IMG/VR virus record: IMGVR_UViG_3300031754_000001
Location: 1 to 64,000 of that record
Length of the DNA stretch: 64,000 bases
Strand: one strand, 5' to 3'
Source of the DNA: a virus
Both the position numbers and the translations under genes were made by a program. Positions within the stretch are counted from its first letter, which is position 1. Each line of letters starts with the position of its first letter. This document shows, piece by piece, positions 3,889 to 39,515 of the stretch. Below the pieces are notes generated by a model. It saw only the letters and a program-made list of their open reading frames with translations. It was not told where the DNA came from and ran no database searches.

Positions 3889-5667
3889 ATGTCCGTCGCC
3901 CTGCGGGTCGTGCCGGATGTCATCCTGCCCGACGGCCAGGTGCTGCGCGGGCTGGCCGGGCAGCAGCAGCCGAGATTCTGGACCGCCCCGCCGCGGCACC
4001 GGGACAAGGACCCGGCCTGCGCGGCGTGCCGGAACCCGGATTACGCGGGCGGCTGCGGCGACTACCAGTCCGCGGACCTGCTCAGCTGGGCGCCGGATTT
4101 CGGCTACGACCTGGATGAATGGCAGCAGTGGTGGCTGGCCGAGGCCTGCGGGACCCGGCCGGACGGCACGTGGGCGGCTTTCGAGAACTACCTGGTCGTC
4201 AGCCGGCAGAACGGCAAGAACCAGTGCCTGGAGGTCCGCGAGCTGGGCGGCCTGTTCGTCTTCGGCGAGACGATGATCATCCACACCGCGCACGAGTTCA
4301 AGGCCGCGGCCGAGCATTTCCGCCGGGTCCGGGACACCATCACCGCCTACGACGAGTTGCGCAAGCGGGTCAAGTCGATCACCACCTCCCACGGCGACGA
4401 GGCGATCGAGCTGCGGCCGGTGCCCACCCTGATCTTCGGCCCGGCCGGCCGGATGGTCCGCCGGACGATTACGCCCCGGCTCCGGTTCCTGGCCCGCAGC
4501 CGGGGTTCCGGCCGGTCTTTCACCGCGGATTGCGTCGTCTACGACGAGGCGATGATCCTGAGCGACGAGCAGGTCGGCGCCTCGATGCCGACGATGAGCG
4601 CCGTCCGCAACCCCCAGATGATCTACACCGCGTCCGCGGGATACAAGGATTCCGTCCAGCTCGGCGCGGTGCGCCGCCGGGTGCTCCGCGGGGACCCGAC
4701 CCTGATGGGCGCCGAGTGGTCAATCAGCCCGCACGCCGACACCTGCCCGCGTGACGAGATCCGCGGCCGGAGCACCAACCGGTACATCACTTGCACCCTG
4801 CATGACGACCGGGACGACCCGCGGTCCTGGGCCAAGGCCAACCCGGCGCTGGGCGATCGGATCACCGTCCGGCACGTCGCCCAGGAGATGGCCTCGATGA
4901 GCACCGACACCTTCGACCGGGAGCGGCTGGGCGTCGGCGACTGGCCGTCCGAGGACGAGTCCTGGTCGGTGATCAGCAAAGAGCACTGGGAAGCCTGCGC
5001 GATGCCCGATCCCGGCGGAGCCTGCCGGCCCATCGCGTTCGCCGTGGACGTGGACCCGGACATGCTCAGCGCGTCGATCGCCGCGGCCTGGTACCGGCCT
5101 AAGCCCGGGTTGCAGCAGGCCGCCGAGGACGCCGAGATGATGACCGCGATGAAGTGGTCGGCTACCACCGGGATGCCATTGTTCTCGCCGCAGCGGAAAA
5201 TCCGGGACGAGAAACCGGTGATCGAGATCCCGAGAGGCTGCCACCGGGAGGGCGTCAGCTGGGTCATCCCGCGGCTGGCCGAACTCAGGACGGCGTGGCG
5301 GCCCATCGCGGTCGCCATCCCGAAGAACGGGCCGGCTGCCGGGCTGATCGATGACGCGGAGAAGGCCGGGATCGAGGTGCTGAAGATGTCATCCGCCGAC
5401 GAGGCCGCCGCGTTCAGCTTCATCGTCACCGCCGCCCGGTCCCGTAATCTCATCCATCTCGGCCAGGAGAATGCCCCGGGCATGTGGCACGCCGTGGCCA
5501 GGGCCGAGACCCGGGACATCGGCGACGGCGGCCACGCCTGGTCGCGCCGCGACAGCGAGTCGGACATCACTCCGGTCACCTCAGGCACGGCCGCGCTGTG
5601 GGCGCTGAACAAGAAGCGCCGGAATTACGATCCGATGCGCAGTATAGGATTAGAACAGGTAATCTAG
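3889..5667 (+). CDS. terL: terminase large subunit
   Basis: Walker A VSRQNGK, Walker B VVYDEA, YTAS coupling motif, KANPALG, nuclease FAVDV and SDITP; in-frame TTA at 5650 just after YDPMRSIG. Confidence 0.95.
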   Translation: MSVALRVVPDVILPDGQVLRGLAGQQQPRFWTAPPRHRDKDPACAACRNPDYAGGCGDYQSADLLSWAPDFGYDLDEWQQWWLAEACGTRPDGTWAAFENYLVVSRQNGKNQCLEVRELGGLFVFGETMIIHTAHEFKAAAEHFRRVRDTITAYDELRKRVKSITTSHGDEAIELRPVPTLIFGPAGRMVRRTITPRLRFLARSRGSGRSFTADCVVYDEAMILSDEQVGASMPTMSAVRNPQMIYTASAGYKDSVQLGAVRRRVLRGDPTLMGAEWSISPHADTCPRDEIRGRSTNRYITCTLHDDRDDPRSWAKANPALGDRITVRHVAQEMASMSTDTFDRERLGVGDWPSEDESWSVISKEHWEACAMPDPGGACRPIAFAVDVDPDMLSASIAAAWYRPKPGLQQAAEDAEMMTAMKWSATTGMPLFSPQRKIRDEKPVIEIPRGCHREGVSWVIPRLAELRTAWRPIAVAIPKNGPAAGLIDDAEKAGIEVLKMSSADEAAAFSFIVTAARSRNLIHLGQENAPGMWHAVARAETRDIGDGGHAWSRRDSESDITPVTSGTAALWALNKKRRNYDPMRSIGLEQVI

Positions 5668-5675
5668 TAATGAGG

Positions 5676-5891
5676 ATGAACCTGCTGCTGGCTTTCGATA
5701 CGGATTCACCGGAGTACTCTCGCGGCGTGGAACTGGGCATTCTCTGGGAGACGCTACGGCGGGATGGCCATGCTCGTTGCATGATGCACGACGGTAATGC
5801 CGAGATGATGATCCGGGCCGCCGAAGCATTGAACCTGCCATTCCGGGCTGAGCCGGCCGGAGATGGCTGGCTACATGCGGAAATAGGATGA
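5676..5891 (+). CDS. hypothetical protein
   Basis: MNLLLAFDTDSPEYSRGVELG...; ATG lies within GGATGA at 5674-5679. Confidence 0.7.
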   Translation: MNLLLAFDTDSPEYSRGVELGILWETLRRDGHARCMMHDGNAEMMIRAAEALNLPFRAEPAGDGWLHAEIG

Positions 5892-5950
5892 TCAGATGCA
5901 GGTGACTTCCGTGCTGGGCACGCACGTGAGGCGTCAGGCCCGGGAAAACC

Positions 5951-6101
5951 GGGCGGTAACGCGCAGACCGCGAGATAGCGACTAGCGATGCGGATGCAAG
6001 CCGGGGCTGGATGCGCAAGCGCCGCCGGGAAGCGGCCGAGCCCGGTGAGCTGCCCGCTAGCAGAGCGGCGTACGGGTTCGAATCCCGCGGGTTACCTGCC
6101 T
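5951..6101 (+). ncRNA. tRNA-like ncRNA with expanded anticodon domain (YrlA-like candidate)
   Basis: Terminal stem GGTAAC/GTTACC, D-like CGC-gagata-GCG, CTAGCG/CGCTAG enclosing about 65 nt, T arm CGGG-TTCGAAT-CCCG. Confidence 0.6.
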
Positions 6102-6121
6102 GGCCGCGGGAGGCCGGCGTG

Positions 6122-6487
6122 ATGTCCCGGTTTCACTACCGGCAGGGCTGGCTGCTGTACGCGAATCCGGAGATCAGACAGGGCATGGTGGTCTCCGGCG
6201 ACGTGCTGACGTTCGAGCTGTCCGCGGAGCGCTCGTTCGGCGGCATGTCCCTGCGCGTCACCTGCGAGCTGCCCGGCGCGAGCCTGCGGCAGTCAGTCCC
6301 GGCGTCGCCCAGGACGCTGGAGCAGCTGATGTGGGAAGCACTGCAGTCATGGCCGGAGCCGGGCGCCAGGGATGGCCGCAGATGGCCACCGGAGATGGAG
6401 GCGCTGCTGGAACTGGCGAAACGCCATCCGGAGGAGTACGAGGAGCTGCGCGAGGGCGCGGCCGTTTTCCGGGCACTGGGCGGATGA
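6122..6487 (+). CDS. hypothetical protein
   Basis: SD GGGAGG before GTG/ATG at 6119/6122; the upstream part of ORF 6011 overlaps the ncRNA. Confidence 0.6.
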   Translation: MSRFHYRQGWLLYANPEIRQGMVVSGDVLTFELSAERSFGGMSLRVTCELPGASLRQSVPASPRTLEQLMWEALQSWPEPGARDGRRWPPEMEALLELAKRHPEEYEELREGAAVFRALGG

Positions 6488-6549
6488 CTAGTTATAGGTG
6501 CGTGAGGGCACGCTACCCCACGCGGAAGCCCAAGATATAGGCAGGTTCG

Positions 6550-6819
6550 ATGAGTACCCTGACGCAATCCATCCCGGTTGATGATCTGGCCCGGCAGGCA
6601 CGCGGTGCGCGTCCCGGCCACGGGTTCGCCACCGCCATCGCCGCTGTCTTCGTCGCTATCGGCTGGACCGCCGGGCGGGCCGTTACCGGCATCGCGTTCG
6701 CCGGGGTGTGCGTCCGGTATGGGTACTGGCGCGGCCGGGGCCTGACTGATGAGGAGATTGCCGCCCGGGGAGCCCGCCCGCAGCAGCTGCCCGGTCCGCC
6801 GCGCCCGTCCAAGCTGTAA
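6550..6819 (+). CDS. small membrane protein
   Basis: 89 aa with two hydrophobic segments. Confidence 0.65.
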   Translation: MSTLTQSIPVDDLARQARGARPGHGFATAIAAVFVAIGWTAGRAVTGIAFAGVCVRYGYWRGRGLTDEEIAARGARPQQLPGPPRPSKL

Positions 6820-6833
6820 TCCGGGACCTGCCT

Positions 6834-7007
6834 GTGCAGTGCAGCGCGGGTAAGGCCGGCCCCGGCGGGTGCCAGGCCCCGGTTACCTGGGTGGTAAAAG
6901 CGGCCAGCATGCGCAGGTATGCCTGCGGGCGGCACCTGAACCGGGTCTGCCTGGCCTTGCTCAGCACCGGGGTCGCGTACATGACCGTCTCGATCGAGGA
7001 CGGATAA
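6834..7007 (+). CDS. small Cys/His-rich hypothetical protein (57 aa)
   Basis: VQCSAG..GCQAP..YACGRHL..., ends TAA 7005-7007; below the ORF-track cutoff. Confidence 0.45.
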   Translation: MQCSAGKAGPGGCQAPVTWVVKAASMRRYACGRHLNRVCLALLSTGVAYMTVSIEDG

Positions 7008-7226
7008 GGCTGACGCAGCGGTCCTGGCGTCATAGCCGGCCAGGACCTGCTCGATCGCATTCAGGTCCTGGCCGGCTATGACGCCATCGATGCCGGGGCC
7101 GGACAGCCAGTACATGCCATAGTCCCGGGCGCCCGGATCCCGGCGCCGGGTCTTCCGCAGGATCAGGCCGCGGCGGGCGGCCATGCGCCGGAGCCGGGCT
7201 TCGCGGACTTTCAGCTCGTCACCCAT
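7005..7226 (-). CDS. small basic protein; probable functional end at in-frame TTA (codon 74)
   Basis: MGDELKVREARLRRMAARRGLILRKTRRRDP..DYGMYWL; beyond the TTA the frame runs antisense through two + genes to 6513. Confidence 0.55.
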
Positions 7227-7482
7227 GCGGGCAAGCGTACCGGAAGATGCTCCCGGAGATGACCGGGAACAGGCTTTCGGAAACAGCCTGAAGAGGGACG
7301 TGCTAAACCCGGTGTACTGCGCGTAACCTGTGAGTTAGCCACTGCCCGTACAGGCCGCCCTCGCGCGGAGCCGGGTTCATCCCGTTCCGATCCGAGGGAG
7401 TCCCGGCCTCGTGGGGCTGACCGCCCGTACCCGAGCTGAGAACTCCTTTTCGCATGTCTGCGGGAGGGGGTGATACGGGACC

Positions 7483-10393
7483 ATGGGTCTTATCGAGCGC
7501 ATTCAGGCAAGCCGTACTGAGAATCGCGTTATCGGAGGAGTACCCTGGCGATTATCGCCCGTGGGACTCGCCTTTCGTTAAGTTCTCCGCTGGCGGCCCC
7601 GTGCACCCGTCGCGGTCGTTTTACGGCCAGGACGAGGCGCTGGGCCTGCCCGCGCTGTACTCTGGGGCCAAGCTGCTGGCCGACTCGGTGGCCTCGCTGC
7701 CGCTGAAGATCTACACCCGGGGTGGCCTGGACGGCCGGGCGATCCGGTACCGGGGGCCGTCTGTCTTCGACATGCCCTCGGTTACCGGGACTACGTTCGA
7801 CTGGCTGTTCACCGCCATGACTTCGCTGGTGCTGCAGGGCAACGCGTGGGGATTCATCACCGGCCGGGACGGTTACGGCTATCCCACCGGGATCGAGTGG
7901 ATCCCGCCGCAGGACGTCTCGGTGATGGACGACGAGCAGCAGCCGTGGAACCCGCTGCGGTCGCGGATCTACGTGTACGGCCGTCTCATGGGCCGGGACG
8001 AGCTGTTCCACGTGAAGGCCTTCGCCGTGGCCGGCCGGACCGAGGGCATCAGCCCGCTGCGCGCGTTCGCGATGACCATCCTGGCCGGCATGGAGGCCCA
8101 GCGGTACGGCACCGACTGGTTCCGCAGCGGCGGGTTCCCGCCCGGCACGTTCCAGAATTCCGAGATCGAGATCGACGCGGACCAGGCCGAGGAGATCCGC
8201 GAGGCGCTGTCCGCCACCATCCGGCGCCGGGAGCCGCTGGTCTATGGTCGCGACTGGGATTACAAGCCCGTGGTCGTGCCGCCGAACGAGGCCCAGTTCA
8301 TCCAGGCCATGCAGATGAACGCCACCCAGGTCGCCGCCATTCTCGGGCTGCCCCCGGACCGGCTCGGCGGCACTAAGGGCGATAGTCTTACGTACAGTTG
8401 TGTTATGAAAGATACACAGATCCTTACGACTCGCGGCTGGTTGCAGTATGACCAGGTAGAAGCCGGGGACACCGCTCTGACACTGAATGTGGAGACCGGT
8501 ACGGCTGAATGGCAGCCGGTCCAGTCCGTACATATCTACCGCGACGGCCCGTATCCGGTGACGGAGTTCCGGTCACTGCGGCATTCATCGGCTACCACCG
8601 GAAACCACCGCTGGCCTGTTATGTTCGCGCACCGCGCATACGGAAACGGTTGGGCTTGGCGGACGACGGAGACGATGCCCTGGGACGCCCGGGTCGCGGC
8701 TGCGGCCCCGTATCAGGCACCAGATCAGCCGAAGTGGTCTGATGCGCTGACCGAGCTGATGGCTTGGTTCTGGACCGAAGGATGGATCGGCAATAACGGC
8801 CAGGTCACGATTACTCAGTCGGGTGCTGCCAATCCGCGGAATACGGCCAAGATCCGCGCCGTGCTCACTGAGCTGTTCGGCCCGGACGTGAAACTTACCG
8901 GCCGGTCACTGCTGGGCAGCAAGGGCTGGCAGAAGCGCGAGGCTGTCCGCGCCGAGCTGGAACGCGATGCTTCGCAGAGCAACCGGGTTATCGGGCGTAC
9001 ATGCGGGGTGGATCCGCATACGGTAGCGCTGGTCCGCGCGGGCAAAATCGATGGCCCAGGCTGGACCGAGGACACCGACAGCCGCCAGATCAGCCATTTC
9101 CGGTTGAATGCGCAAGCGGGATGGTTTCTGACCGAGCACGCGCCGGGCAAGGTAGTTACGACGGAGTTCCTCAGTCAGCTCACTCGCGCGCAGCTGGAGC
9201 TGTTCTATCAGGTATCTGTCGATGCGGACGGGACGCGCCGGACGGACGGCACGGACGGGGCCGTGATGGCGCAGAAGGATCGTGCCCGGCTGGAGTCCTT
9301 CCAGGTCGCGTGCGCGCTTACTGGCCGTGCCGCGGTAGTCCGAGGTCCGGACCGGAGCGGCATGTACCACGTCAGTATCCGGGTCAAGCCGTTCGTGAAG
9401 CCGAAAGGCCACGCCCGCCAGGTCAGCGAAAGCACCGCAGACCTTGTGTGGTGCGTGCAGACGCCGAACAAGACCTGGTTTGCCCGGCGTGACGGGACCT
9501 GCTACTTCACGGGGAACACGGTGGAGCAGTCGACCCTCCAGGTGATCGAGGCCCTGCGCCCGTGGCTGGTCCGGCTGGAGCACGCGTTCTTCCAGATCAT
9601 CCCCGCCAACCGGTACACCCGGTTCGACAGCGACGCGCTGCTGAAGACGGACCTGAAGACCCGGACCGAGATCTACAAGACCCAGCGGGACATGGGCTTG
9701 CGCAACACGGACGAGCTGCGCGACCTGGAGGACCTGGAGCCGCTGCCCGGCAAGGCCGGCGGGGAGAACATCCCGCTGGAGGTCATGGTCGCCATGGCCC
9801 GGTCGATCCGCGGCATCCCGAATTCCATGCTATCCGGCATCACCCTGGAGATGGACCTGGCCGCCGACCGGCTGGAGCAGCTGCAGAAGGAAGATCTCGC
9901 CCAGCCGGATACCGGCATGCCCTCCGCGCCCAGCGCGGACGCGATGCTCGGCCAGCTGGTCGGCGCGACCCGCAGCCACGACCCCGGCGAGCGGGACGAC
10001 GCCCGGCTGATCCTCGATTTCCTGGCTGCCCGGCGCCGGGCCAGGCGGATGCCCCGGGCCGAGCCCGAGTACATCGGTGCCTGGATCCCGTCTAAGCGTG
10101 AGCTGGTGCTGTCCGGGGTCAACGGTCACGATCACGGCGGCGTCAACGGACGTAAATCAGTCATGGATGTAGTACGGGCGACTTGGAGCGGTCCCGCCGG
10201 GACTGTTCCGCCAGAGCGTATTGCGCACGCTCGGATGCTGGCTGGTCAGCTGTTCGGTCTAAGTCAGACCCGGGACTCTCGTGATGCTGCGCTGTCCGTG
10301 CAGCAGTATGACGAATTGGTTCAGCTCATCCGTAAGCATCCGCCATGTGAATCAGCATTGATCGGAACCAATGGTTACGGGAGGGGTGGCTGA
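7483..10393 (+). CDS. HK97-type portal protein with intein and probable 7-nt coding gap at 7552-7558
   Basis: Portal motifs LADSVASLPL, LVLQGNAW, GISPL, AQFIQ, TYS|TVEQ, LRPWL.RLE; the SD-led ATG 7483 (MGLIERIQ..) is out of frame with the body, with the junction at CGA-TTA-T-CGC. Confidence 0.9.
8399..9517 (+). mobile_element. intein in portal (373 aa)
   Basis: Starts CVMKDTQILTTRGW; block B TGNHRW; degenerate LAGLIDADG motifs (WFWTEG, SVDADG); ends FTGN; +1 Thr. Confidence 0.92.
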
Positions 10394-11226
10394 TGTACCA
10401 GGGTCTTCAGCCGCGCTTCTCGTATCGTCTCGACAGGGATCTTGCCCAGGTCGAACAGCCGGTGATGATTCGGGCAGAGCATGACGACGTTCTCCAGCGT
10501 GTCGTATCCGCCATTCTTCCGGGCCTCGATATGGCAGACGTCGCACGGTGCCAGGTTCCAGCCGCAGATCGCACACCGGTCATGGAACTCCCGGCGGATC
10601 ATCATCCGGAAGGTGCTCGGGCTGGTGTAGACACCGTTGCTTGGCCGTCGCCCGGTCATGGCTTTCGCGTGGCCGATCCTCCGGCACTCCTTAGAGCAGT
10701 AGATGTTGCTACCGTAAACGTTGCCGGACGAGCCGAAGCGAATTCCGATGCTCATGCTGGCCACGCTGACCTTGAACTCGCGGGCGAGAGCAGTCATGGT
10801 CTCCCCGTCCGAGTTCCGGCGGCGGCATACGGCCAGGATCTCTTCTGTCAGCTTTTTCGACCCGTGATTGCCCTGCCGGGCAGGTCCTTGCTGCGAGGGC
10901 AGGTACTCGACCGGCTTACCGCAGGCCGCGCAGGGCGCAGTCTGCCGTTCCTTGCGCGGGTGCGGCGGATTGCGCTTCTGGTACGCGAACTTGCAAGGGT
11001 TCCCGCAGAATTTCGCGCGCTGTCGCGCCTTCGGGCTGTCAAACCACGGAATCGGGCCATTACATTCCGTACACCTTTTGCCTGGAATGAATTCGGATCG
11101 CGTGCGACGGCAGGCTTCACTGCAGTATTTCGCATGATCTCTTTCGTATGCGCCGGGCTTCCACGGTATCGGGTCGCCGCAGTTAACACACGTTTTACCT
11201 GGGATTACGTCGGGATGTCCGCTCAT
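10375..11226 (-). CDS. HNH endonuclease with Zn-finger repeats
   Basis: Repeated CxxC..YCS..C; C-terminal CAICG..DVCHI..GG..N...LCPNHH; antisense between portal and protease. Confidence 0.85.
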   Translation of the reverse strand: MSGHPDVIPGKTCVNCGDPIPWKPGAYERDHAKYCSEACRRTRSEFIPGKRCTECNGPIPWFDSPKARQRAKFCGNPCKFAYQKRNPPHPRKERQTAPCAACGKPVEYLPSQQGPARQGNHGSKKLTEEILAVCRRRNSDGETMTALAREFKVSVASMSIGIRFGSSGNVYGSNIYCSKECRRIGHAKAMTGRRPSNGVYTSPSTFRMMIRREFHDRCAICGWNLAPCDVCHIEARKNGGYDTLENVVMLCPNHHRLFDLGKIPVETIREARLKTLVHQPPLP

Positions 11227-11252
11227 GACATCAGTATATGCGGAGGTTTGCA

Positions 11253-12290
11253 ATGTCCGAACTGACTTCACAGCGCGCAACGCTTTCGACACAGGCGGTG
11301 AATGACCTCCCGGACTCTGCATTCGCCCATATTGAACCGGGGGGTACGAAAGACGCGCAAGGGAAGACGGTTCCCCGCTCTAAGCGGCATTTCCCCGTGC
11401 ACGACGAGGCGCACACCCGCAATGCCCTGTCCCGGGCGCCGCAGTCGCCGTTCGGCAAGGCCGCCATGCCGAAGATCCTCAGCGCCGCGCGCAAGTTCGG
11501 GATCAAGGTATCGGCCGACCAGCGCGCCGCCTTCGGCCTGGACGTGACCCTGGACAGCTTCCCGGAGCGCCGGTTCACCCGGTTCCCGCCGGAGGTCCGG
11601 CAGAAGAACGAGCACGGCCCGCAGTTCATCTACGGGTATGCCGCCGCTTTCGGCAAGCTGTCGCGGAAACTCGGGGGCTTCGTGGAGCAGGTAGACACGC
11701 TGGCCTTCAACGAGTCCAAGACCCAGGGCTGGCCGGATGTCGTCTGCCGGTACAACCACAAGGACGACTCGCTGCTCGGCACTACCTACGCCAGGACGCT
11801 GCGGCTGGCCACCGATTCCACCGGCCTGGCCTATGAGGTGGAACCGCCGCAGGCCCGCGCCGACGTGCTGGAGTACGTGACCCGCGGTGACGTCCGGCAC
11901 AGCAGCTTCGCCTTCCGCGTGTATCCCGGCGGGGATGAGTGGGGTGTCAGCGAGTTCAACTACCCGATGAGGACCTTGCTGTCGGTGCAGCTGGTGGACG
12001 TGGCCCCGGTCCTGGACCCGGCCTATCCGGATGCCACCGCCGGCGCACGCGCGATGAACGGCGCGATCGAGTCGCTGGCCGCCTGGGTGCAGGCAGACGT
12101 GGAGGAGGTCCGGAGCCGGGTCGGCGAGGGCCGGGCGATGGAGTTCTTCAAGCGCGTGAGCGTGGACGGCGGCAGCAAGCCCAAGCCCGAGCAGCGCAAG
12201 CCCGCGCCGCGTCCGGTGATGACCGGCGCCCAGGCCCTGCTTGCCCTGCAGGCCAACATGGAGGATCCCTGGGTCGGAGAGGACGACTGA
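11253..12290 (+). CDS. HK97-family prohead protease with N-terminal extension
   Basis: GYAAAF, GGFVEQV, YNH..LLG, SSFAF, LVDVAPV..PAY; N-terminal LPDSAFA..FPVHDEAH.RNALSR domain; SD GGAGG. Confidence 0.9.
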   Translation: MSELTSQRATLSTQAVNDLPDSAFAHIEPGGTKDAQGKTVPRSKRHFPVHDEAHTRNALSRAPQSPFGKAAMPKILSAARKFGIKVSADQRAAFGLDVTLDSFPERRFTRFPPEVRQKNEHGPQFIYGYAAAFGKLSRKLGGFVEQVDTLAFNESKTQGWPDVVCRYNHKDDSLLGTTYARTLRLATDSTGLAYEVEPPQARADVLEYVTRGDVRHSSFAFRVYPGGDEWGVSEFNYPMRTLLSVQLVDVAPVLDPAYPDATAGARAMNGAIESLAAWVQADVEEVRSRVGEGRAMEFFKRVSVDGGSKPKPEQRKPAPRPVMTGAQALLALQANMEDPWVGEDD

Positions 12291-32757: not shown

Positions 32758-32788
32758 AAGCTATATCCATAGCGTGAGCATTATTAGC

Positions 32789-32858
32789 TGGCCCGGCGGG
32801 AGTCGAACCCGCGTCCCCGGCTTAGGAGGCCGTTACTCTCTCCTCTGAGCTACGGGCC
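32789..32858 (-). tRNA. tRNA-Arg(CCT)
   Basis: Cloverleaf; anticodon loop CTCCTAA. Confidence 0.9.
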
Positions 32859-32860
32859 AT

Positions 32861-32936
32861 TGGAGGCGGAACCCGGAATCGAACCGGGGTGACGCGTTTT
32901 GCAGACGCGGGCCTGTCCTGACTCGGCCATACCGCC
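32861..32936 (-). tRNA. tRNA-Cys(GCA)
   Basis: Loop CTGCAAA; encoded CCA. Confidence 0.9.
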
Positions 32937-33006
32937 GGGAGGGCACCCCGTTCAGTAACGGATGCTCGCGCAGGGCCGTCGCTAGGACGAGCCTTCACGG
33001 GATGCC

Positions 33007-33081
33007 TGGTGCGCCCGGCAGGATTCGAACCTGCGCTCACGGCTCCGGAGGCCGTAGCTCTTTCCCCTGAGCTACGGGCGC
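33007..33081 (-). tRNA. tRNA-Arg(CCG)
   Basis: Loop CTCCGGA; encoded CCA. Confidence 0.92.
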
Positions 33082-33305
33082 GTGCTATCTGACTGCCCGG
33101 TATCCAGCCGGGTCACGACGGAGGAAGGCTGCCGGATTACCGTCACCGGGCCGATTTCCCAGTCCTGCCTGCAGGCGTCGTCCAGGATCACGCCTGCCGC
33201 CTGGGTGATCGAGATGCCTGCCTGCTTAGCCTGGGTGATCAGGTAATCGTGCGTTTCGGTGCGGACTCGCAGCTGTGTCGTGAACCATCCGGGCGTGTCT
33301 GCCAT
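33072..33305 (-). CDS. small ribbon-helix-helix-like protein
   Basis: TQLRVRTETHDYLITQAKQAGISITQAA; TAGCAT 6 nt before ATG (leaderless). Confidence 0.6.
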   Translation of the reverse strand: MADTPGWFTTQLRVRTETHDYLITQAKQAGISITQAAGVILDDACRQDWEIGPVTVIRQPSSVVTRLDTGQSDSTRP

Positions 33306-33378
33306 ATGGACATGCTACGCCATCCTATTTACCAGGCCAGAAGATTCGCGGAAGAGTTCCGGTAGATCGCTGAACTAG

Positions 33379-33462
33379 TGGCGGAACCAGGTGCCGACCC
33401 TGGCATGCCCTGAAGGACGACGGTTTTACGGACCGCTGAGCGCGCCGGCGCTCACTCCCGCC
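33379..33462 (-). tRNA. tRNA-Tyr(GTA), divergent
   Basis: Loop CCGTAAA; long variable arm; atypical D and T loops. Confidence 0.7.
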
Positions 33463-33535
33463 TGGGGTGGCTGACGGGGACGAGCCGCATAATCCAGGCC
33501 CACAACCTGGTGCTCTACTGTGAGCTACAACCACC
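33463..33535 (-). tRNA. tRNA-His(GTG)
   Basis: G-1; loop TTGTGGG; CCA; divergent T loop. Confidence 0.8.
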
Positions 33536-33536
33536 G

Positions 33537-33607
33537 TGCCCGGCGACGGAATCGGACCGCCGTAACGCGGGTGTGGACCGCGTGCTCTCCCATTGAGCTA
33601 GCTGGGC
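33537..33607 (-). tRNA. tRNA-Val(CAC)
   Basis: Loop TCCACAC. Confidence 0.8.
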
Positions 33608-33689
33608 ATTATGCTGACTGCGCGAGGCTCCGGGTACCGATCCAGCACAGGGTGGGTGCGCGCGAACCGGAGCCTCGCGTTAGTCATCG

Positions 33690-33761
33690 TGCGCCCAGGA
33701 GGAGTCGAACCCCCATTGCCGGATCCGTAGTCCGGAGCCCTGTCCTTTAGACGATGGGCGC
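33690..33761 (-). tRNA. tRNA-Arg(ACG)
   Basis: Loop CTACGGA. Confidence 0.9.
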
Positions 33762-33772
33762 TTGGCACTGCG

Positions 33773-33845
33773 TGGTCACACCTGGGATCGAACCAGGGTC
33801 CTCTGCCTTGTCGGGGCAGCGCTCATGCCGCTGAGCTACGTGACC
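33773..33845 (-). tRNA. tRNA-Val(GAC)
   Basis: Loop CCGACAA. Confidence 0.85.
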
Positions 33846-33949
33846 AGGTGTCCCATCCGCCGGGGAGCGGTTTCGCCTGGCGGTTCCCCCGCTGCCGCGC
33901 GCAGCGATACGGGGGCCTGCCCGGACAAGCACCAGGGACCGGGTGCTCG

Positions 33950-34024
33950 CGGCCGAGACGGGGTTTGAACCCGCGGTCTTCACCTTGACAGGGTGACGGG
34001 GACTCCTGGCTCCCCTACACGGCC
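33950..34024 (-). tRNA. tRNA-Asp(GTC)
   Basis: Loop CTGTCAA. Confidence 0.88.
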
Positions 34025-34037
34025 ATGCGGTATTGCG

Positions 34038-34111
34038 CTCCGGTGACTGGACTCGAACCAGTGACCCTCCGCTTAACAGGCGGTTGCTACTGCCGACTGA
34101 GCTACACCGGA
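34038..34111 (-). tRNA. tRNA-Asn(GTT)
   Basis: Loop CTGTTAA. Confidence 0.9.
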
Positions 34112-34124
34112 TCATGTGACTTCG

Positions 34125-34196
34125 TGGCGGAGACCGGATTTGAACCGGTGTGTCCTGGGTTATGAGCCCTGGCTGGGTGACCGAGCCCCCTCCGCG
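34125..34196 (-). tRNA. tRNA-fMet(CAT)
   Basis: Unpaired C1; GGG/CCC anticodon stem; loop CTCATAA. Confidence 0.8.
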
Positions 34197-34223
34197 TCGT
34201 ATGGCACCAGCATAACCGGTGCC

Positions 34224-34304
34224 TGGTGACGCTGACGGGAATCGAACCCGCGTCTGTCTCTGCTTGAAAGGCAGGCCGCCCCTGGCCATCAGAGCAACAG
34301 CGCC
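34224..34304 (-). tRNA. tRNA-Glu(TTC)
   Basis: Loop CTTTCAA; CCA. Confidence 0.8.
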
Positions 34305-34366
34305 ATGACCAGGGGGGCCGCTGGTCTCGGCTCCCCGGCGAGCTGGCCGGGGACTAGCCCGTGATG

Positions 34367-34441
34367 TGGTCCTGGAGGGACTCGAACCCTCGGTCTCCGC
34401 CTTGAGAGGGCGGCGAACACTCCAGCCTGCTCCGCAGGACC
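34367..34441 (-). tRNA. tRNA-Glu(CTC)
   Basis: Loop CTCTCAA. Confidence 0.88.
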
Positions 34442-34508
34442 ATGTGAACTTGTGAAAGCGCGGAGACTATCAGCCGGGCCTGCGCGTGACCTGCGGAAAC
34501 GTAATCTG

Positions 34509-34582
34509 CGCGCCGACGAGGACTCGAACCTCGGGCCGTTCCCTTAGAGGGGGACCGCTCTGTCCGGCTGAGCTACCGGCGC
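34509..34582 (-). tRNA. tRNA-Arg(TCT)
   Basis: Loop CCTCTAA. Confidence 0.85.
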
Positions 34583-34607
34583 CTGGTAACGATATCACTA
34601 CACTCCG

Positions 34608-34679
34608 TGGGCCGACAGGGGTTCGAACCCTGGACGCGCGGGTTAAAGGCCCGCCGCTCTGCCGCTGAGCTACCGGTCC
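34608..34679 (-). tRNA. tRNA-Lys(TTT)
   Basis: Loop CCTTTAA. Confidence 0.85.
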
Positions 34680-34725
34680 CTGCTTATGAGCAGGAACTGT
34701 TTCGTGATCATGATCAGATGCCTCC

Positions 34726-34802
34726 TGGTGCGCAGGGTGGGACTTGAACCCACGATCTTCGGATTATGAGTCCGGCGCCTTGACCAGCTTGGCCACCTGC
34801 GC
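34726..34802 (-). tRNA. tRNA with CAT anticodon (Ile2 or Met)
   Basis: Loop CTCATAA; CCA. Confidence 0.88.
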
Positions 34803-34812
34803 CTGGAAATCG

Positions 34813-34885
34813 TAGCGAGAGCGGGAACCGAGCCCGCGGCCTCTGCCTTATGGGGGCAGCGCTCTGCCAGCTGAGCTATCTCGCT
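34813..34885 (-). tRNA. tRNA-Met(CAT)
   Basis: Loop CCCATAA; T loop CTCGGTT. Confidence 0.78.
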
Positions 34886-34886
34886 A

Positions 34887-34963
34887 TGGTGGGGTTGGTT
34901 GGACTTGAACCAACGGTCTCTTCCTTATCAGAGAAGCGCTCTAACCAGCTGAGCCACAACCCC
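34887..34963 (-). tRNA. tRNA-Ile(GAT)
   Basis: Loop CTGATAA; CCA. Confidence 0.92.
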
Positions 34964-34985
34964 CCTGGGTACTGCGCGCACTGCG

Positions 34986-35076
34986 CGGAGGAGGTGGGAT
35001 TTGAACCCACACGGGGACTCCCGCCCCCTGACTGTTTTCGGGACAGCTGCCGTTAGGCCAATCGGCTTACCCCTCC
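34986..35076 (-). tRNA. tRNA-Ser(CGA)
   Basis: Loop CCCGAAA; long variable arm. Confidence 0.85.
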
Positions 35077-35415
35077 TGGTGAATCAGGCGTGCTGCCATG
35101 CCGCTAGGCGAATCTTTCGGGCGAGGCCCCCGCGCCGGGGCGTGATCCGCACACCGTGTTCCCGGCTGGGCAGTGTCCCGCGATCCCGGGCGCCTGGTTG
35201 CCCGGACGGGAGTAACCCCTGTTGTGGTGCCCTCGGGGTCGTCACGCCCCTGCAGGCTCCCCGGCATTACGGGGCCTCTTACTGAGCTAACCGTGCGCAC
35301 GGCTTGCCGCCAGCGCCAGATCTGCCTGCCTGACCGGAACCCCGGAAGACCCCGGCTGGGCCAGTAACTCCAGGCAACCACCGTAATCCAGTTACGCGCC
35401 GGGGTCAACCATGCA
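35077..35415 (-). ncRNA. large structured ncRNA candidate (possibly GOLLD-like)
   Basis: About 340 nt between two Ser tRNAs; many hairpins; no credible ORF. Confidence 0.45.
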
Positions 35416-35420
35416 CGAAG

Positions 35421-35505
35421 CGGAGGGCGCGAGATTCGAACTCGCGAGGGACAGAGCCCAACCGCCTTTCCAGGACGGCGCCATAGGCCTCTAGGCGAGC
35501 CCTCC
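35421..35505 (-). tRNA. tRNA-Ser(GGA)
   Basis: Loop CTGGAAA; long variable arm. Confidence 0.9.
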
Positions 35506-35517
35506 AGGTACGTCGAG

Positions 35518-35607
35518 CGGAGGATCGGGGATTTGAACCCCGGAGGGCACATACGTCCCAACTGCATTAGCAGTGCAGCGCCATGGGCCAGGCTAGGCGA
35601 ATCCTCC
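35518..35607 (-). tRNA. tRNA-Ser(GCT)
   Basis: Loop CTGCTAA; long variable arm. Confidence 0.9.
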
Positions 35608-35677
35608 AGGTGTACTGCAATCTTGCACCAGATTTTGTATCGTAGATCCAGGAAAAAAGCCTGTGAAAGGAAGGCAG

Positions 35678-36547
35678 ATGACTGGTAACCAGTACGCGGT
35701 GCACAGCCGGCAGATCGCCGCCAGGCTCCGGCAGTTCCGGATCGAGTCCGGGCTCAGCGGTGAGGCGGTCGCGAACCGGTTCGGGTGGTCGCCGTCCAAG
35801 GTTTCCCGGATCGAGCTGTTCCGGACCGGGGTCAGCCTGCGCGACCTGCGCGATCTCCTGGACCTCTATGAGGTCGGCGGACCCGAGCGGGAAGCCCTGG
35901 ACTCACTCGCCGGGAAAATCCGCGGCCGGGGACCCGATGACTATTCCGAGGCGGTCATGACCCAGGAATGGTCCGTGACGGCGCTGCCCGCTCCCGTGCG
36001 CACGGTCGCCTATGCCCGCGGGGTCTTCCGGGCCGCCCAGCCGATTACCCGGGTAGTGGTGCGCGACATCGAGCACGAGATACAGGCCACCATCTTCCGG
36101 CAGATCCGGCTGGCCAGGAGCGAGAACGCGGATCCGATGCTGCTCCGGGTCTGCCTTGACGAGGCGGTGCTGAGCCGCCGGTACGGGGACGAGGCCGTGA
36201 TGACCGCCCAGCTCACCCGGCTGACCGAACTCGCCGCCCAGCCGAACATCACGCTGCGGGTGCTGCCGCTCAGCACGCCCGTGATCCGGCCGCCTAGTTT
36301 CTCCCTGTTCCACTTCACGGGCAGTGAGACGGAGGAACTGGTCATGCCCGCCTTGTCGGTGGAGCACGTAGAGGGAACCTGGGTGCCGGGCTCGGACGAG
36401 GATACGTACCTCTACCAGGTGACCTTCGGTCATCTCTGGTCGCTGGCGCTGCCGGAAGACGAGACCCTGGCCGTCATCCGGCGGCTGTGCGAAGTGTCCG
36501 AGGAGGGACTTGAACCCTCACGTCCCTTCCGGGACACACGGGCCTGA
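35678..36547 (+). CDS. XRE-family HTH regulator with DUF5753-like domain
   Basis: LRQFR..SGLS..VA..FGWSPSKVSRIE; LDEAVLSR..G..VM.AQL.RL..QPNITLRVLP; actinomycete-type family. Confidence 0.88.
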   Translation: MTGNQYAVHSRQIAARLRQFRIESGLSGEAVANRFGWSPSKVSRIELFRTGVSLRDLRDLLDLYEVGGPEREALDSLAGKIRGRGPDDYSEAVMTQEWSVTALPAPVRTVAYARGVFRAAQPITRVVVRDIEHEIQATIFRQIRLARSENADPMLLRVCLDEAVLSRRYGDEAVMTAQLTRLTELAAQPNITLRVLPLSTPVIRPPSFSLFHFTGSETEELVMPALSVEHVEGTWVPGSDEDTYLYQVTFGHLWSLALPEDETLAVIRRLCEVSEEGLEPSRPFRDTRA

Positions 36548-36580
36548 ACCGTGCGCGTCTTCCAGTTTCACCACCCGGAC
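36495..36580 (-). tRNA. tRNA-Leu(CAG)
   Basis: Loop TTCAGGC; long variable arm. Confidence 0.9.
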
Positions 36581-36833
36581 ATGGGGATCACGACGTCGAT
36601 TTCCTGTTGCGGAATCGCATGAGGTTCAGTCAGTACGGCCGGCGCCAGTTATCCCGGTCGTGATCCTGCTTGGGTGAACCAGGCCCTTACACAGCAGGCA
36701 CCCCGGGCTCGCGCGGCTCGCCTGCTCCGTTTCCTGGCTGCTAAGTCGCGTTTCGCCAGGTAACACCCTTCTCCGGCCTGCTCGCGCAGTGATCTGCCAG
36801 AGGATCTACCCCACCTGGGGGCCTGGTTCTCCG

Positions 36834-36906
36834 AGCGGATGACGGGATTCGGACCCGCGACCCCCACCTTGGCAAGGTGATGCGCTACCAGCTGCGCTAC
36901 ATCCGC
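36834..36906 (-). tRNA. tRNA-Gly(GCC)
   Basis: Loop TTGCCAA. Confidence 0.9.
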
Positions 36907-37116
36907 ATTGGATGCCGCTCGCCCCGGCATTACCCGGGTTCTCGGGTTTCCCGTCAGGAACCGGACGGCTAGCCGCGGTAAGCCAGCTAACCCGTTTTGC
37001 GCCCCTGTCCGGCTGCGCTGATCTCACAGCCTGGAGAGGACCAGCACGACGGGATCAGTTCCGCCGTACGAGGTCCGGAGGCCGGAACGCACCGCCTCCG
37101 CCTTACCGTTTAAACG

Positions 37117-37189
37117 AGCCCCGACCCCGGTTCGAACGGGGGACCTGCGCCCTACCATGGCGCTACTCTGCCGGCTGAGTTACCGGGGC
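37117..37189 (-). tRNA. tRNA-Thr(GGT)
   Basis: Loop ATGGTAG. Confidence 0.85.
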
Positions 37190-37257
37190 ATGCTGGGCGG
37201 TAAAGACGCCCATGGACAGCCGCTGACATTCTGGGACTGTCCTGATCTGTCCACAAG

Positions 37258-37329
37258 CTGGGGTACCAGGATTCGGACCTGGACTGAGAGGGCCAAAATC
37301 TCTCCGGCTGCCAGTTACCGCATACCCCA
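37258..37329 (-). tRNA. tRNA-Gln(TTG)
   Basis: Loop TTTTGGC. Confidence 0.82.
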
Positions 37330-37400
37330 TGGAGCCGTTCCCCGGTGCTACCCCGGGCCGCCCGCCTTACAGGGGCGAGGTCGCGGCTGCGCGCAACGGC
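37330..37400 (-). tRNA. tRNA-Thr(TGT), divergent
   Basis: Loop CCTGTAA; shrunken D arm; non-canonical T loop; CCA. Confidence 0.65.
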
Positions 37401-37401
37401 C

Positions 37402-37490
37402 TGGTGTCCGAGGCGGGACTTGAACCCGCACGCCCCTTCCGGAGCACTAGCACCTCAAGCTAGCGCGTCTACCTGTTTCACCACCCGGAC
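37402..37490 (-). tRNA. tRNA-Leu(GAG)
   Basis: Loop TTGAGGT; CCA. Confidence 0.92.
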
Positions 37491-37494
37491 TCAG

Positions 37495-37562
37495 AGCCGC
37501 CCCCCGGTGCTGATCCGGGTCTCCCGCCTTACGAAAGCGAGGCCGCAACCGTGCGCGGCGGC
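37495..37562 (-). tRNA. tRNA-Thr(CGT), divergent
   Basis: Loop TTCGTAA; shrunken D arm; T loop ATCAGCA. Confidence 0.65.
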
Positions 37563-37566
37563 ATTG

Positions 37567-37639
37567 CTGGGATACCTGGATTCGAACCAAGACTACGAGG
37601 GCCAGAACCTCGCGGGCTGCCTGATTACCCCATACCCCA
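37567..37639 (-). tRNA. tRNA-Gln(CTG)
   Basis: Loop TTCTGGC. Confidence 0.9.
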
Positions 37640-37652
37640 TTGGTACTGCCAG

Positions 37653-37726
37653 TGCCCGGGGCGGGAGTCGAACCCGCACTGTTTCGCTTTTGAGGCGATC
37701 GCTCTGCCTGTTGGACGTACCCGGGC
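37653..37726 (-). tRNA. tRNA-Leu(CAA), short variable arm
   Basis: Loop CTCAAAA. Confidence 0.82.
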
Positions 37727-37921
37727 AATAATCAGGCAATAGCATGGTGCAGATCAGGCACCTACCACAACGGGACTCGGCTGCACACCGCTTACCCGTT
37801 CCTTTGCGTCCTTCGCCGCCGTATCCGTGCCAGGCGAGCTGGCGTGCAGCAACCCGGTTCCCGGCATACGGCAGGACCGAGCGCCACCCGCAGATCCTGA
37901 CAACCTCGGTGCCTGATCTCG

Positions 37922-37993
37922 TGCGCCGCCAGGGACTTGAACCCCGAACTTGCTGGTTAAGGGCCAGCTACTCTGCCATTGAGTTAGCGGCGC
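37922..37993 (-). tRNA. tRNA-Lys(CTT)
   Basis: Loop CCCTTAA. Confidence 0.87.
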
Positions 37994-37997
37994 GCAG

Positions 37998-38069
37998 AGC
38001 CCTGGACCGGAATCGAACCGGCATTCGCTGCTTGGAAGGCAGCAACACTAGCCATTGTGTTACCAAGGC
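37998..38069 (-). tRNA. tRNA-Gly(TCC)
   Basis: Loop CTTCCAA. Confidence 0.88.
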
Positions 38070-38268
38070 AGGTCCCGGGGCCGTGCCGTGCCAGAGCCTG
38101 TATTTTGCCGGCTTGCGGCCAGCTCATCAGGGTGACGGCACCGTTGAGAGGTGCCCCGGGCGGCATGAGGCCCGGCCTTGCGCAAGGCCTGGCTTTACCG
38201 GGAGGGACGTCACTCCCCTGGTGTCACCGGGCTGCCGTGTTCCAGGATTTCCCGGCGTCATGCCGTTG

Positions 38269-38342
38269 TGGTCAGGGCCTGGATCGAACAGGCGCCCTCT
38301 TGCTTTTCAGGCAAGCGCTCATACCGGCTGAGCTACCTGACC
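38269..38342 (-). tRNA. tRNA-Phe(GAA)
   Basis: Loop CTGAAAA. Confidence 0.9.
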
Positions 38343-38347
38343 ATCAG

Positions 38348-38420
38348 TCGGGAACCCGGGTGCCGATCCCGGTGTCTCCTGCTCCCAAAGCAGGTGGGTT
38401 AGCCGTCTCCCTCGTTCCCG
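38348..38420 (-). tRNA. tRNA-Pro(TGG), divergent T loop
   Basis: Loop TTTGGGA; T loop ATCGGCA. Confidence 0.75.
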
Positions 38421-38430
38421 TTGTTGCTCG

Positions 38431-38504
38431 TCGGAGCGGCGGTATTCGAAACCGCGGCCTCCTGTCCCCCAGACAGGCGCGCTGCCAAGCTGCGCCACGC
38501 TCCG
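38431..38504 (-). tRNA. tRNA-Pro(GGG)
   Basis: Loop CTGGGGG. Confidence 0.88.
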
Positions 38505-38522
38505 TTTGATCTGCCAGAATAG

Positions 38523-38596
38523 TCGGGGCAACAGGATTCGAACCTGTGGCCTCGTCGTCCCGAACGACGCGCGCTGCCAAGCTGCGCCATGCCCCG
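38523..38596 (-). tRNA. tRNA-Pro(CGG)
   Basis: Loop TTCGGGA. Confidence 0.92.
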
Positions 38597-38620
38597 GTGG
38601 TTTCCCGTGAATCTTTACTG

Positions 38621-38953
38621 TCATGCTTCTAGCAGTTCAGTCAGCCCGTGCTCCAGCCGCCAGTGATGCTGCTGGTGATGCGGCTCGCATAGCCATATGA
38701 CCAGGCGAGGATTACCGTAATCCGGATGATGAGCCTGAGCTGGCTTGATGCCGCAGACCGCGCACGGGCCAGGAACTACCTGACCCCGCTTGACCAGCAC
38801 GTGCGTGTACGCGCGGGTAATTCCCTTACGCCGCTGGTCTTCGCTCGGCTGATGTGTCTTCCGCCACTCGCGCATGTAAGCCGCGTGGCAATCGGCACAG
38901 TACCTCTGACCTGTCCTCGAATGAGGAACTCCGCACCGGGAGCACGGTTTCAC
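38621..38953 (-). CDS. small HNH-like endonuclease
   Basis: CSRCG..YCADC; PCAVCG..AQAHHPDY..WLCEPHH. Confidence 0.8.
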   Translation of the reverse strand: MKPCSRCGVPHSRTGQRYCADCHAAYMREWRKTHQPSEDQRRKGITRAYTHVLVKRGQVVPGPCAVCGIKPAQAHHPDYGNPRLVIWLCEPHHQQHHWRLEHGLTELLEA

Positions 38954-38969
38954 GCTAACAGCCTATGCG

Positions 38970-39040
38970 TGGAGATGGTGCGGATCGAACGCACTGCAGC
39001 ACGCTTGCGGGGCGCGCCCGGTACCCTACCTGTCATCCCC
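38970..39040 (-). tRNA. tRNA-Ala(CGC)
   Basis: G3:U70 pair; loop CCCGCAA; atypical D arm. Confidence 0.75.
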
Positions 39041-39044
39041 GGAT

Positions 39045-39162
39045 GCGGCACTCTCTCCGATTAAGCTACCGGTCAACAACCGGGCCGGCTTTCCGCGACG
39101 CGTACTCACAGGTGGCCTGATCTGCTAAGTGACCGGACGGGACTCGAACCCGCGTCCGCCGC
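39045..39162 (-). ncRNA. circularly permuted tRNA-like RNA
   Basis: 3' half (GCGGC, GGAC, T arm TTCGAGT, CCGGTCA) precedes 5' half (TGACCGG, TAGCTTAATCGGAGAGAGT, GCCGC). Confidence 0.75.
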
Positions 39163-39164
39163 CG

Positions 39165-39237
39165 TGGAGCCTACGAGAGTCGAACTCGTGACCTTCTCAA
39201 TGCCATTGAGACGCGCTGCCAGCTGCGCCAAGACCCC
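39165..39237 (-). tRNA. tRNA-Ala(GGC)
   Basis: G3:U70 pair; loop ATGGCAT. Confidence 0.9.
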
Positions 39238-39443
39238 ATAGTGCTGGTTCCCTGGCCGGGCCGTCTAGCAACAACCGGCCCGGCCAGGGGTCAGCACATC
39301 GCAGGAGACCAAAGGAACTCCTGCTCGATGGCGGGATTGGCCGTCCCGCCGAAATGCTCACGCTATGGAGATGTCAAGATGGCCAGCCGGAGCTGACCGC
39401 GGTGACATGCACTATCCGCGGCTCTCGCCTTGGACGGTGGTCG

Positions 39444-39515
39444 CAGGGGCGGAAGGACTCGAACCCTCGTAGGCAGGTTTGGAATCTGCTGTCCTGGCCG
39501 CTAAACGACGCCCCT
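39444..39515 (-). tRNA. tRNA-Trp(CCA)
   Basis: Loop TTCCAAA. Confidence 0.9.

Follow-up and report, generated by a model that had tools for sequence, protein, structure and literature searches.

A UUA-led gap of seven nucleotides in a phage portal gene and its probable crossing by translational bypassing

The portal gene of an uncultured soil phage, IMG/VR record IMGVR_UViG_3300031754_000001, is laid out in two reading frames separated by seven nucleotides (nt) that begin with an in-frame TTA. We propose, with a probability of roughly three in four, that this coding gap is crossed by UUA-triggered translational bypassing, a reading that draws on comparison with related sequences. The window analyzed here is the first 64 kb (64,000 nt) of the 139,583-bp record (67.8% G + C, linear ends, about 66% complete according to CheckV). 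Related portal genes carry inserts of the same design in 31 allelic forms.

The anatomy of the gene is established. From ATG 7483 the frame extends over 32 codons (MGLIERIQASRTENRVIGGVPWRLSPVGLAFR), and the portal body follows in the +1 frame relative to that start. A plain open reading frame (ORF) finder returns the portal ORF at 7454-10393, with 979 codons that are intact apart from the 5′ break. This ORF matches the Pfam family Phage_portal (HK97-family, PF04860) from residue 66 onward with an E value of 1.4e-46, the score of 159.6 bits lying above the curated cut-off of 39.1. It is the sole portal gene in the 139.6-kb record, its two profile matches being the halves that flank an intein-like insert. 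A sequence-only reading of the same DNA had described an ATG led by a Shine-Dalgarno site, a stop at 7579, a portal body in the +1 frame, the junction CGA 7549, TTA 7552, T and CGC 7556, and a UUA forming the loop of a 5-bp stem, and all of these features are confirmed. The stem is perfect and belongs to the minimum-energy fold. The same reading had remarked on the lack of an obvious Shine-Dalgarno site at ATG 7454, the start of the plain ORF, and indeed no purine-rich ribosome-binding site lies upstream of it.

A protein search with portal residues 1-320 returns 263 relatives, and the N-termini of the 119 listed non-self proteins were examined. The great majority of these (98) read in one frame through the consensus (M/V)GLIERIQASR..RVIGGVPW(R/K/Q)PWDSPF.KF..GGP.HP, and one more of the 119, P0062, displays the same N-terminus with Thr. 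Twelve are truncated gene calls, and three have in-frame extra residues at these places (VPWRLSRPW, VPWRLNRPW and GGVLVPW). The remaining five (P0002, P0024, P0039, P0043 and P0106) have an unrelated N-terminal stretch and then GDY(R/C)PW or GENRPW, apparently the result of gene calling across such a break; P0002 is 79% identical and reads GDYRPW. The window needs 7 nt to be skipped to give VIGGVPWR-PWDSPF. As 98 of the listed homologues are uninterrupted here, the fusion corresponds to the family consensus and the window holds seven extra nucleotides. The product VPWRPWDSPF, foreseen from the window alone for a 7-nt skip, is thus the N-terminus that these 98 proteins share.

The same comparison bears on the possibility that no recoding takes place, in which case portal translation would begin at ATG 7454 or internally at GTG 7601, leaving the 7483 frame to encode a short leader peptide. 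The ORF from 7454 is open, and the database call for the window portal (P0001, 930 amino acids) begins at GTG 7601, the next in-frame start after 7560. However, the alignment of related portal N-termini, which had been named as a check, leaves the 7454-frame peptide unmatched save by the five gene calls that resemble the same break, and the 7454 start has no Shine-Dalgarno site to serve it. The start at 7601 is 39 codons late and deletes eight family-invariant residues (W24, P26, W27, P30, F34 and G37-P39), which disfavors translation starting downstream of 7560. Selection on the 7483 frame, described below, points in the same direction, and we regard a portal made without recoding as very unlikely.

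The dissociation and re-pairing of the tRNA would proceed as follows. Translation would start at ATG 7483 and place CGA 7549 in the P site with UUA in the A site, a codon that is practically unused in the phage lineage and has no cognate tRNA in the record. The ribosome would pause, and the peptidyl-tRNA-Arg would release CGA, to which it is bound through a weak inosine-adenosine wobble pair. The mRNA would then move by 7 nt, the same tRNA would re-pair with CGC 7556, and decoding would restart at CCG 7559, yielding the family-typical ...VIGGVPWR-PWDSPFVK... portal. CGA and CGC are read by one inosine-bearing tRNA-Arg, and the tRNA-Arg(ACG) gene that had been noted in the tRNA array of this virus is confirmed. 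Reading of UUA as Leu would instead lead to a product of 32 residues ending at 7579. That bypass gives portal and decoding gives this short product had been suggested before, and strong comparative evidence supports it. The hop product would carry the junction peptide VIGGVPWRPWDSPFVK as a single tryptic peptide, because the R-P bond is not cut by trypsin. The hop itself and its efficiency are inferred; its purpose could be a low portal output, or an output tied to the host's charged tRNA-Leu(UAA), as proposed for the Streptomyces phage phiHau3.

For the DNA of relatives, 80 IMG/VR loci and 80 metagenome loci were retrieved with a 40-sequence alignment, and a frameshift-aware dynamic programme (DP) was applied to each locus against a position-specific profile of the first 62 residues. 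Parsing succeeded for 157 of 165 sources and left 100 distinct N-terminal DNAs. The counts cover the 89 that reach a DP score of at least 100 and carry no correction for relatedness. The 11 sequences with scores below 100 were excluded, and by eye L143, L147 and L160 show more TTA inserts. Eight sources without an N-terminal anchor remained unparsed (L081-83, L137, L139, L152, L162 and L164). Three of them, L081-L083, came from an exact 19-mer search across the junction in IMG/VR; they are one unrelated sequence of lower GC with ordinary in-frame coding and were rejected as chance matches.

Of 76 loci, 44 have the canonical distance of 60 nt from RVIGGVPW to GGPxHP, and the other 32 have 65-75 nt. 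The conserved part, counted from profile position 15, contains 41 extra stretches across the 89 sequences, and 38 of them begin with an in-frame TTA directly after a sense codon. The other three are L150, with AAA for TTA, and the two halves of an ordinary 12-nt protein insertion in L132, which were removed. The 38 TTA-led inserts are distributed over 31 sequences, several of which carry two, and represent 31 alleles at eight sites (codons 22, 25, 28, 29, 31, 32, 33 and 34) with lengths of 2, 4, 5, 6, 7, 8, 9, 10, 11 and 12 nt. Frame is broken by 24 alleles and kept by 7, the net shift needed being +1 in 15, +2 in 9 and none in 7. Elsewhere in the 89 relatives, an in-frame TTA is absent from the 5,362 aligned N-terminal codons and occurs once among 44,220 codons further along the portal gene. 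Judged by these frequencies, the pattern of TTA-led inserts lies far beyond chance.

Sequences with two inserts (L033, L038, L055, L129, L008 and L140) provide a further view, as only the shifted frame gives a consensus-like peptide between the inserts. The unshifted frame of L033 stays open all along, so that a gene caller would see an intact, locally scrambled protein. Quick termination after a decoded UUA was considered as a general feature and rejected, many alleles having no zero-frame stop in the stretch examined. One metagenome locus, L108, appears to encode a portal that has lost its first ~30 codons, with a ribosome-binding site fused just 5′ of the insert TGG-TTA-GCC-TGC-AAA; a deletion variant and a chimeric assembly are possible explanations.

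The ends of the inserts are closely related to the codons that precede them. When the last three nucleotides of each insert are compared with the codon before TTA, 68 of 93 positions agree and eight alleles are identical, while in 10,000 permutations of the landing codons across alleles 32 positions agree on average and 47 at most. The landing codon is identical or synonymous to the take-off codon in 22 of the 31 alleles. The pairs comprise CGA to CGC, CGT, CGA, CGG or TGC; GTT to GTC or GTT; TCT to TCC; TAT to TAC; AAT to AAT; TTT to TTT; CAG to CAG; GAT to GGY; TGG to AGG, CGG, TGC or TGG; ATG to ATT; and CGC to CGA. Of the 16 carriers at site 25, 15 take off from CGA, a codon present in 3 of the 73 sequences that are insert-free there and occurring elsewhere at 1.1 per 1,000 codons. 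Take-off codons are rare, wobble-weak synonyms (CGA, and GTT, TAT, TCT, AAT, GAT and TTT at other sites). The proposal that one tRNA reads both the take-off and the landing codon, made initially for the window, recurs as a rule across the 31 alleles, and this rule is established for the relatives. A single mechanism, re-pairing at the first compatible downstream triplet with a slow UUA in the A site, fits all three length classes.

These alleles also allow bypassing to be compared with a +1 ribosomal frameshift at the stalled UUA, in which no hop occurs and the portal carries two extra residues. Either an out-of-frame tRNA-Tyr would read UAU (...VPWR-YR-PWDSPF), or the shift would follow decoding of UUA as Leu (...VPWRL-R-PWDSPF). 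The +1 path through the window, UAU CGC, has no stop codon; in-frame alleles (6, 9 or 12 nt) exist, whose two to four additional residues the protein might accept when UUA is decoded; and slow A-site codons are described as promoting +1 shifts (PMC10732093, introduction). In 10 of the 15 net +1 alleles, however, the base after TTA is A or G, so that an immediate +1 shift meets an overlapping UAA or UAG and the path is blocked. Nine alleles need +2 or -1, for which a frameshift model requires at least two further mechanisms. Nor does a frameshift give a reason for the gap-end codon to resemble the take-off codon. All inserts in codons 22-29 begin with TTA and not with a common Leu codon. The arrangement also departs from +1 shifting of the RF2 (prfB) type: CGA cannot re-pair at the +1 position (GAU), and GGAGGAG ends 8 nt, not ~3, before CGA. 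The alleles with overlapping stops can be viewed as a natural version of the +1-stop test that Antonov et al. performed on phiHau3, where a +1-frame stop in the gap left recoding undiminished (PMC10732093, section 3.6). Overall, a +1 frameshift is an unlikely source of the portal protein.

Both parts of the gene are under selection. A start at consensus position 1 (ATG in 22, GTG in 2) behind a GGAGGTGAT-like site is retained in each of the 24 frame-broken sequences, and a Shine-Dalgarno-like motif precedes the start codon in 24 of the 24 listed frame-broken relatives, as it does in the window. Over codons 2-21 these 24 sequences display a proportion of synonymous differences (pS) of 0.70 and of nonsynonymous differences (pN) of 0.23, with a ratio of the corresponding rates (dN/dS) of 0.13, compared with a dN/dS of 0.26 for the 56 insert-free sequences. 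The segment 5′ of the break is therefore a constrained, translated part of the protein under purifying selection, a finding at odds with a leader peptide in the 7483 frame. A further suspicion is that the break is a 7-nt indel artefact of assembly or the mark of a defective phage. The evidence for the window itself is a single metagenomic contig. A search of sequencing runs listed one DNA run, which may be the source of this contig, and no RNA run; no contig over the stretch came from the DNA run, an outcome that may be a false negative. Nevertheless, N-termini compatible with such a break are seen in five proteins of other assemblies, the 24 distinct frame-broken relatives follow one design, no second portal gene exists in the record, and the rest of the ORF is intact over its 979 codons, so a dead gene or an assembly error is most improbable.

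Several observations weigh against bypassing, or at least against its simplest form. Among landing codons, 21 of 31 match the take-off codon at two of three positions only, and 2 of 31 at one only. The window's own +1 frame through the gap (UAU CGC) is open, so that a +1 shift giving WR-YR-PW is conceivable for this allele. L150 has AAA for TTA at codon 25, with the geometry of the window (CGA xxx C CGC, 7 nt). The inserts are clustered in codons 22-34. Scarcity of tRNA-Leu(UAA) in the host is an assumption; likewise, with a record ~66% complete, a phage tRNA-Leu(UAA) gene could lie in the remainder. Finally, the hairpin is statistically unremarkable, z falling below -1 in only 15 of 31 alleles (mononucleotide shuffles).

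Concerning L150, AAA is found at 0 of the 409 downstream in-frame codons of that gene, which has 13 AAG codons; AAA may be a second slow codon in the same use.

Two elements near the window junction may assist the hop. Hairpins with UUA in or near the loop, joining the take-off and landing sides, are predicted for many alleles. For the window, the 61-nt region gives z -0.94, with 37 of 200 shuffles folding equally well or better, and the 25-nt segment gives z -1.57 against mononucleotide shuffles. As a general feature the hairpin was rejected on the allele count given above. The second element is the internal Shine-Dalgarno-like motif: GGAG occurs in codons 19-23 of 14 of 31 carriers versus 7 of 58 insert-free sequences (Fisher p 0.0012, uncorrected for relatedness).

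The distribution of inserts over the family hints at a dynamic history. A quick FastTree tree built from 245 downstream residues requires no fewer than 20 state changes for the 31 carriers and 16 for the 16 site-25 carriers, indicating that among the 89 sequences inserts were often gained, lost or exchanged. One account of their origin, which is compatible with a hop, is that the inserts mainly mark destroyed target sites of homing endonucleases, with bypassing allowing the gene to survive. For T4 gene 60 and MobA, it has reportedly been argued that the insert destroys a homing-endonuclease target site. An HNH gene lies antisense just after the portal gene, the portal holds an intein-like insert, and the TTA-led inserts are clustered in 13 codons and scattered over the tree (20 changes for 31 carriers). 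Nuclease families were sought in ORFs of 100 codons or more whose third-position GC content (GC3) reached 0.70; downstream, the search was by BLAST with the window HNH protein only. In the 1.5 kb upstream of the portal start, HNH, GIY-YIG and LAGLIDADG families give no match in 61 ORFs at 23 carrier loci or in 128 ORFs at 49 insert-free loci, one VRR_NUC match being present among the 61. Downstream HNH relatives stand equally beside carriers (the L028 and L040 groups and the window) and beside insert-free portals (L018, L026, L031 and L065). An origin as endonuclease marks is thus doubtful, and linkage of the inserts to nucleases was rejected as unsupported, with no upstream match and a downstream HNH gene that is not associated with inserts. 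Relatives of the window-type HNH protein follow some, not all, related portal genes.

Smith et al. reportedly put forward UUA-mediated bypassing for the phiHau3 terminase in 2013. In the survey of Antonov et al. (2023, RNA Biol 20:926; PMC10732093), as far as its sections on these genes describe, 3 of 100 large terminase genes contain four UUA-led gaps, two of 10 nt in phiHau3 and gaps of 7 nt in the StrepC.1 and S. catenulae prophages, and a junction peptide was detected by mass spectrometry in E. coli. The portal gene resembles the phiHau3 terminase in having a short, frame-breaking, UUA-led insert in an otherwise intact, essential, low-copy packaging gene, with flanks that are contiguous in insert-free homologues, a proposed landing codon able to pair with the take-off tRNA (CGA to CGC), and a predicted structure that would bring the landing codon near UUA. 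Its UUA is the first codon of the insert (TTA 7552) in a UUA-avoiding genome, and its gap length of 7 nt is that of the StrepC.1 and S. catenulae gaps. Unlike the phiHau3 set, it encodes a portal and not a terminase, and its lineage is unrelated and uncultured. While the published terminase set, as there described, comprises four sites in three genes, the portal family offers 31 alleles spread over 8 sites, its gaps span 2-12 nt, and a gene may hold as many as two; the terminase set has support from mass spectrometry, whereas the portal family is known here through its sequences.

The distance from cultured phages is considerable. A blastn search of 7300-8500 against 50,697 phage records gives no match, and tblastn against the same records finds distant portals only, at no more than 32% identity, for example in cluster-J-type mycobacteriophages. 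Among 185,579 species genomes there are 38 pattern matches, none of them a relative, and these offer no prophage or host clue.

In the programmed bypass of T4 gene 60, a gap of 50 nt separates matched GGA take-off and landing codons. The portal site is similar in that a tRNA would leave the take-off codon for a matched landing codon, with a poorly decodable codon in the A site and the take-off codon in a predicted stem. It differs in gap length, 7 nt and not ~50, and in that the sense codon UUA replaces the stop codon; no stop follows right after the take-off codon, and no link to a mobile nuclease is seen in the data set. The counterpart of the T4 take-off stem-loop would be the 5-bp stem with its UUA loop, whose z is modest (-0.94 to -1.57). 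Some gene-60 relatives use a rare AGG codon, according to the part of a preprint that treats them (bioRxiv 10.1101/2022.08.31.505936).

Bypassing at starved ("hungry") codons involves, as proposed for the portal, a forward hop of a few nucleotides that ends on a cognate or near-cognate triplet while decoding of the A-site codon lags. Such bypassing was reportedly described in E. coli, with short hops, by Gallant and Lindsley and by Weiss et al. in 1987. Unlike these low-level laboratory events, the portal sites are conserved and needed for an essential protein. Another actinophage gene split between two frames, with a rare UUA where they meet, is the primase of mycobacteriophage Bxb1, whose genes 50 and 51 overlap near this codon and for which a frameshift or bypass has been suggested (2025, PMC12646305). 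Unlike the portal family, the mechanism there is left undefined in the passage making this suggestion, which reports no matched-codon series. A portal-gene case of UUA bypassing was not found in the literature searched.

The mechanism has already been proposed in print for terminase genes, and the portal case is less novel accordingly. UUA bypassing in print, as represented by the relevant sections of PMC10732093, consists of three terminase genes with four sites between them and a single heterologous experiment. New here is the same design in another essential gene, carried by a phage lineage unrelated to these, together with a second gene of the same genome, discussed below. The 31 natural alleles, varying in gap length, take-off and landing pairs and context, form a testable rule set for short-range ribosome hopping. 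Gene callers mis-annotate such genes, as illustrated by the window portal, called 39 codons late, and by five relatives with false N-termini. When TTA-led gaps go unrecognized, portal, terminase and other genes of high-GC phages are consequently reported as truncated or frameshifted. It is conceivable, though we put it slightly short of an even chance, that UUA serves as a dedicated "hop here" signal and not as a leucine codon in a large clade of uncultured soil actinophages. As none of the 34 phage tRNAs is for UUA, UUA gaps could gate or throttle virion-gene output according to the level of host tRNA-Leu(UAA). The 31 alleles would in that case be a ready rule book for short-range bypassing, covering gap length, take-off and landing pairs and overlapping +1 stops.

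The tRNA array (32787-39515, minus strand) comprises these 34 genes for 18 amino acids, with none for Tyr or His. Most take-off codons of the family have their decoders among these genes, namely Arg(ACG), Val(GAC), Asp, Asn, Ser(GGA), Trp, Phe, Gln and Met. The Leu tRNAs are CAG, GAG and CAA; a tRNA-Leu(UAA) is absent from the 34 tRNA genes of the 139.6-kb, ~66% complete record.

The second gene is a glycosyltransferase, in which the frame changes at TAT(58876)-TTA-C, and a 4-nt hop from TAT to TAC would restore ...LNTESPY-QDNEQL.... Among the 39 homologues examined of 120 listed, ESPY lies in one frame in all 39, and 38 continue into ...TESPYQ(D/E)..Q..., the exception, P0130, having the same break as this gene of the window. 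At 58612-58620 of the same gene, CTT-TTA-CCC adds "LP" in frame, where most homologues examined read GYNLNDRL. Few other in-frame TTA codons exist in credible genes, and these stand at or near gene ends, at 5650 (the terminase C-terminus) and 47636. Table 1 collects the positions of the features discussed.

Table 1. Features of the portal locus and of related elements in the window
Feature	Position	Strand	Remarks
Shine-Dalgarno-like motif GGGAGGGGGTGAT	7462..7474	+	Ends 8 nt 5′ of ATG 7483 and serves that start
Portal coding part 1, start codon to take-off codon (MGLIERIQASRTENRVIGGVPWR)	7483..7551	+	N-terminus matched by 98 of 119 listed homologues
Internal Shine-Dalgarno-like GGAGGAG in Gly-Gly-Val codons	7534..7540	+	Ends 8 nt 5′ of take-off codon; possible stimulator
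Stem GGCGA/UCGCC, 5 bp, with UUA as loop	7547..7559	+	Halves 7547-7551 and 7555-7559
Take-off codon CGA (Arg)	7549..7551	+	
In-frame UUA, proposed slow ("hungry") A-site codon	7552..7554	+	
Predicted undecoded 7 nt, TTATCGC	7552..7558	+	Missing from insert-free homologues; frameshift-aware alignment to family profile (window is row L084)
Single T between TTA and CGC	7555	+	
Proposed landing codon CGC (Arg)	7556..7558	+	First downstream triplet cognate to take-off tRNA
Portal coding part 2 (PWDSPFVKFSAGGP...)	7559..10393	+	CCG 7559 resumes PWDSPF; contains intein-like insert 8399-9517
TAA closing the 32-codon product if UUA is read as Leu	7579..7581	+	
HNH endonuclease gene	10375-11322	-	Pfam HNH_2 (E 1e-7) and DUF2256 zinc-ribbon repeats; antisense directly after portal
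tRNA-Arg(ACG) gene	33689..33761	-	Candidate decoder of take-off and landing codons
Glycosyltransferase gene	58504-59578		Pfam Glyco_trans_1_2 in C-terminal half; frame change, junction 58876-58882

The intein-like insert of the portal (373 codons, plus strand) begins with Cys after ...DSLTYS and ends with ...FTGN before TVEQSTLQ, and the residues flanking it are contiguous in intein-free homologues. It has no Pfam match below E 0.01, apart from which weak helix-turn-helix matches only are seen. Between terminase and portal (5667-7483) lie the ORFs 6011-6484 (plus strand) and 6513-7226 (minus strand), neither with a Pfam match; the resulting spacing of ~1.8 kb is unusual for such a gene pair.

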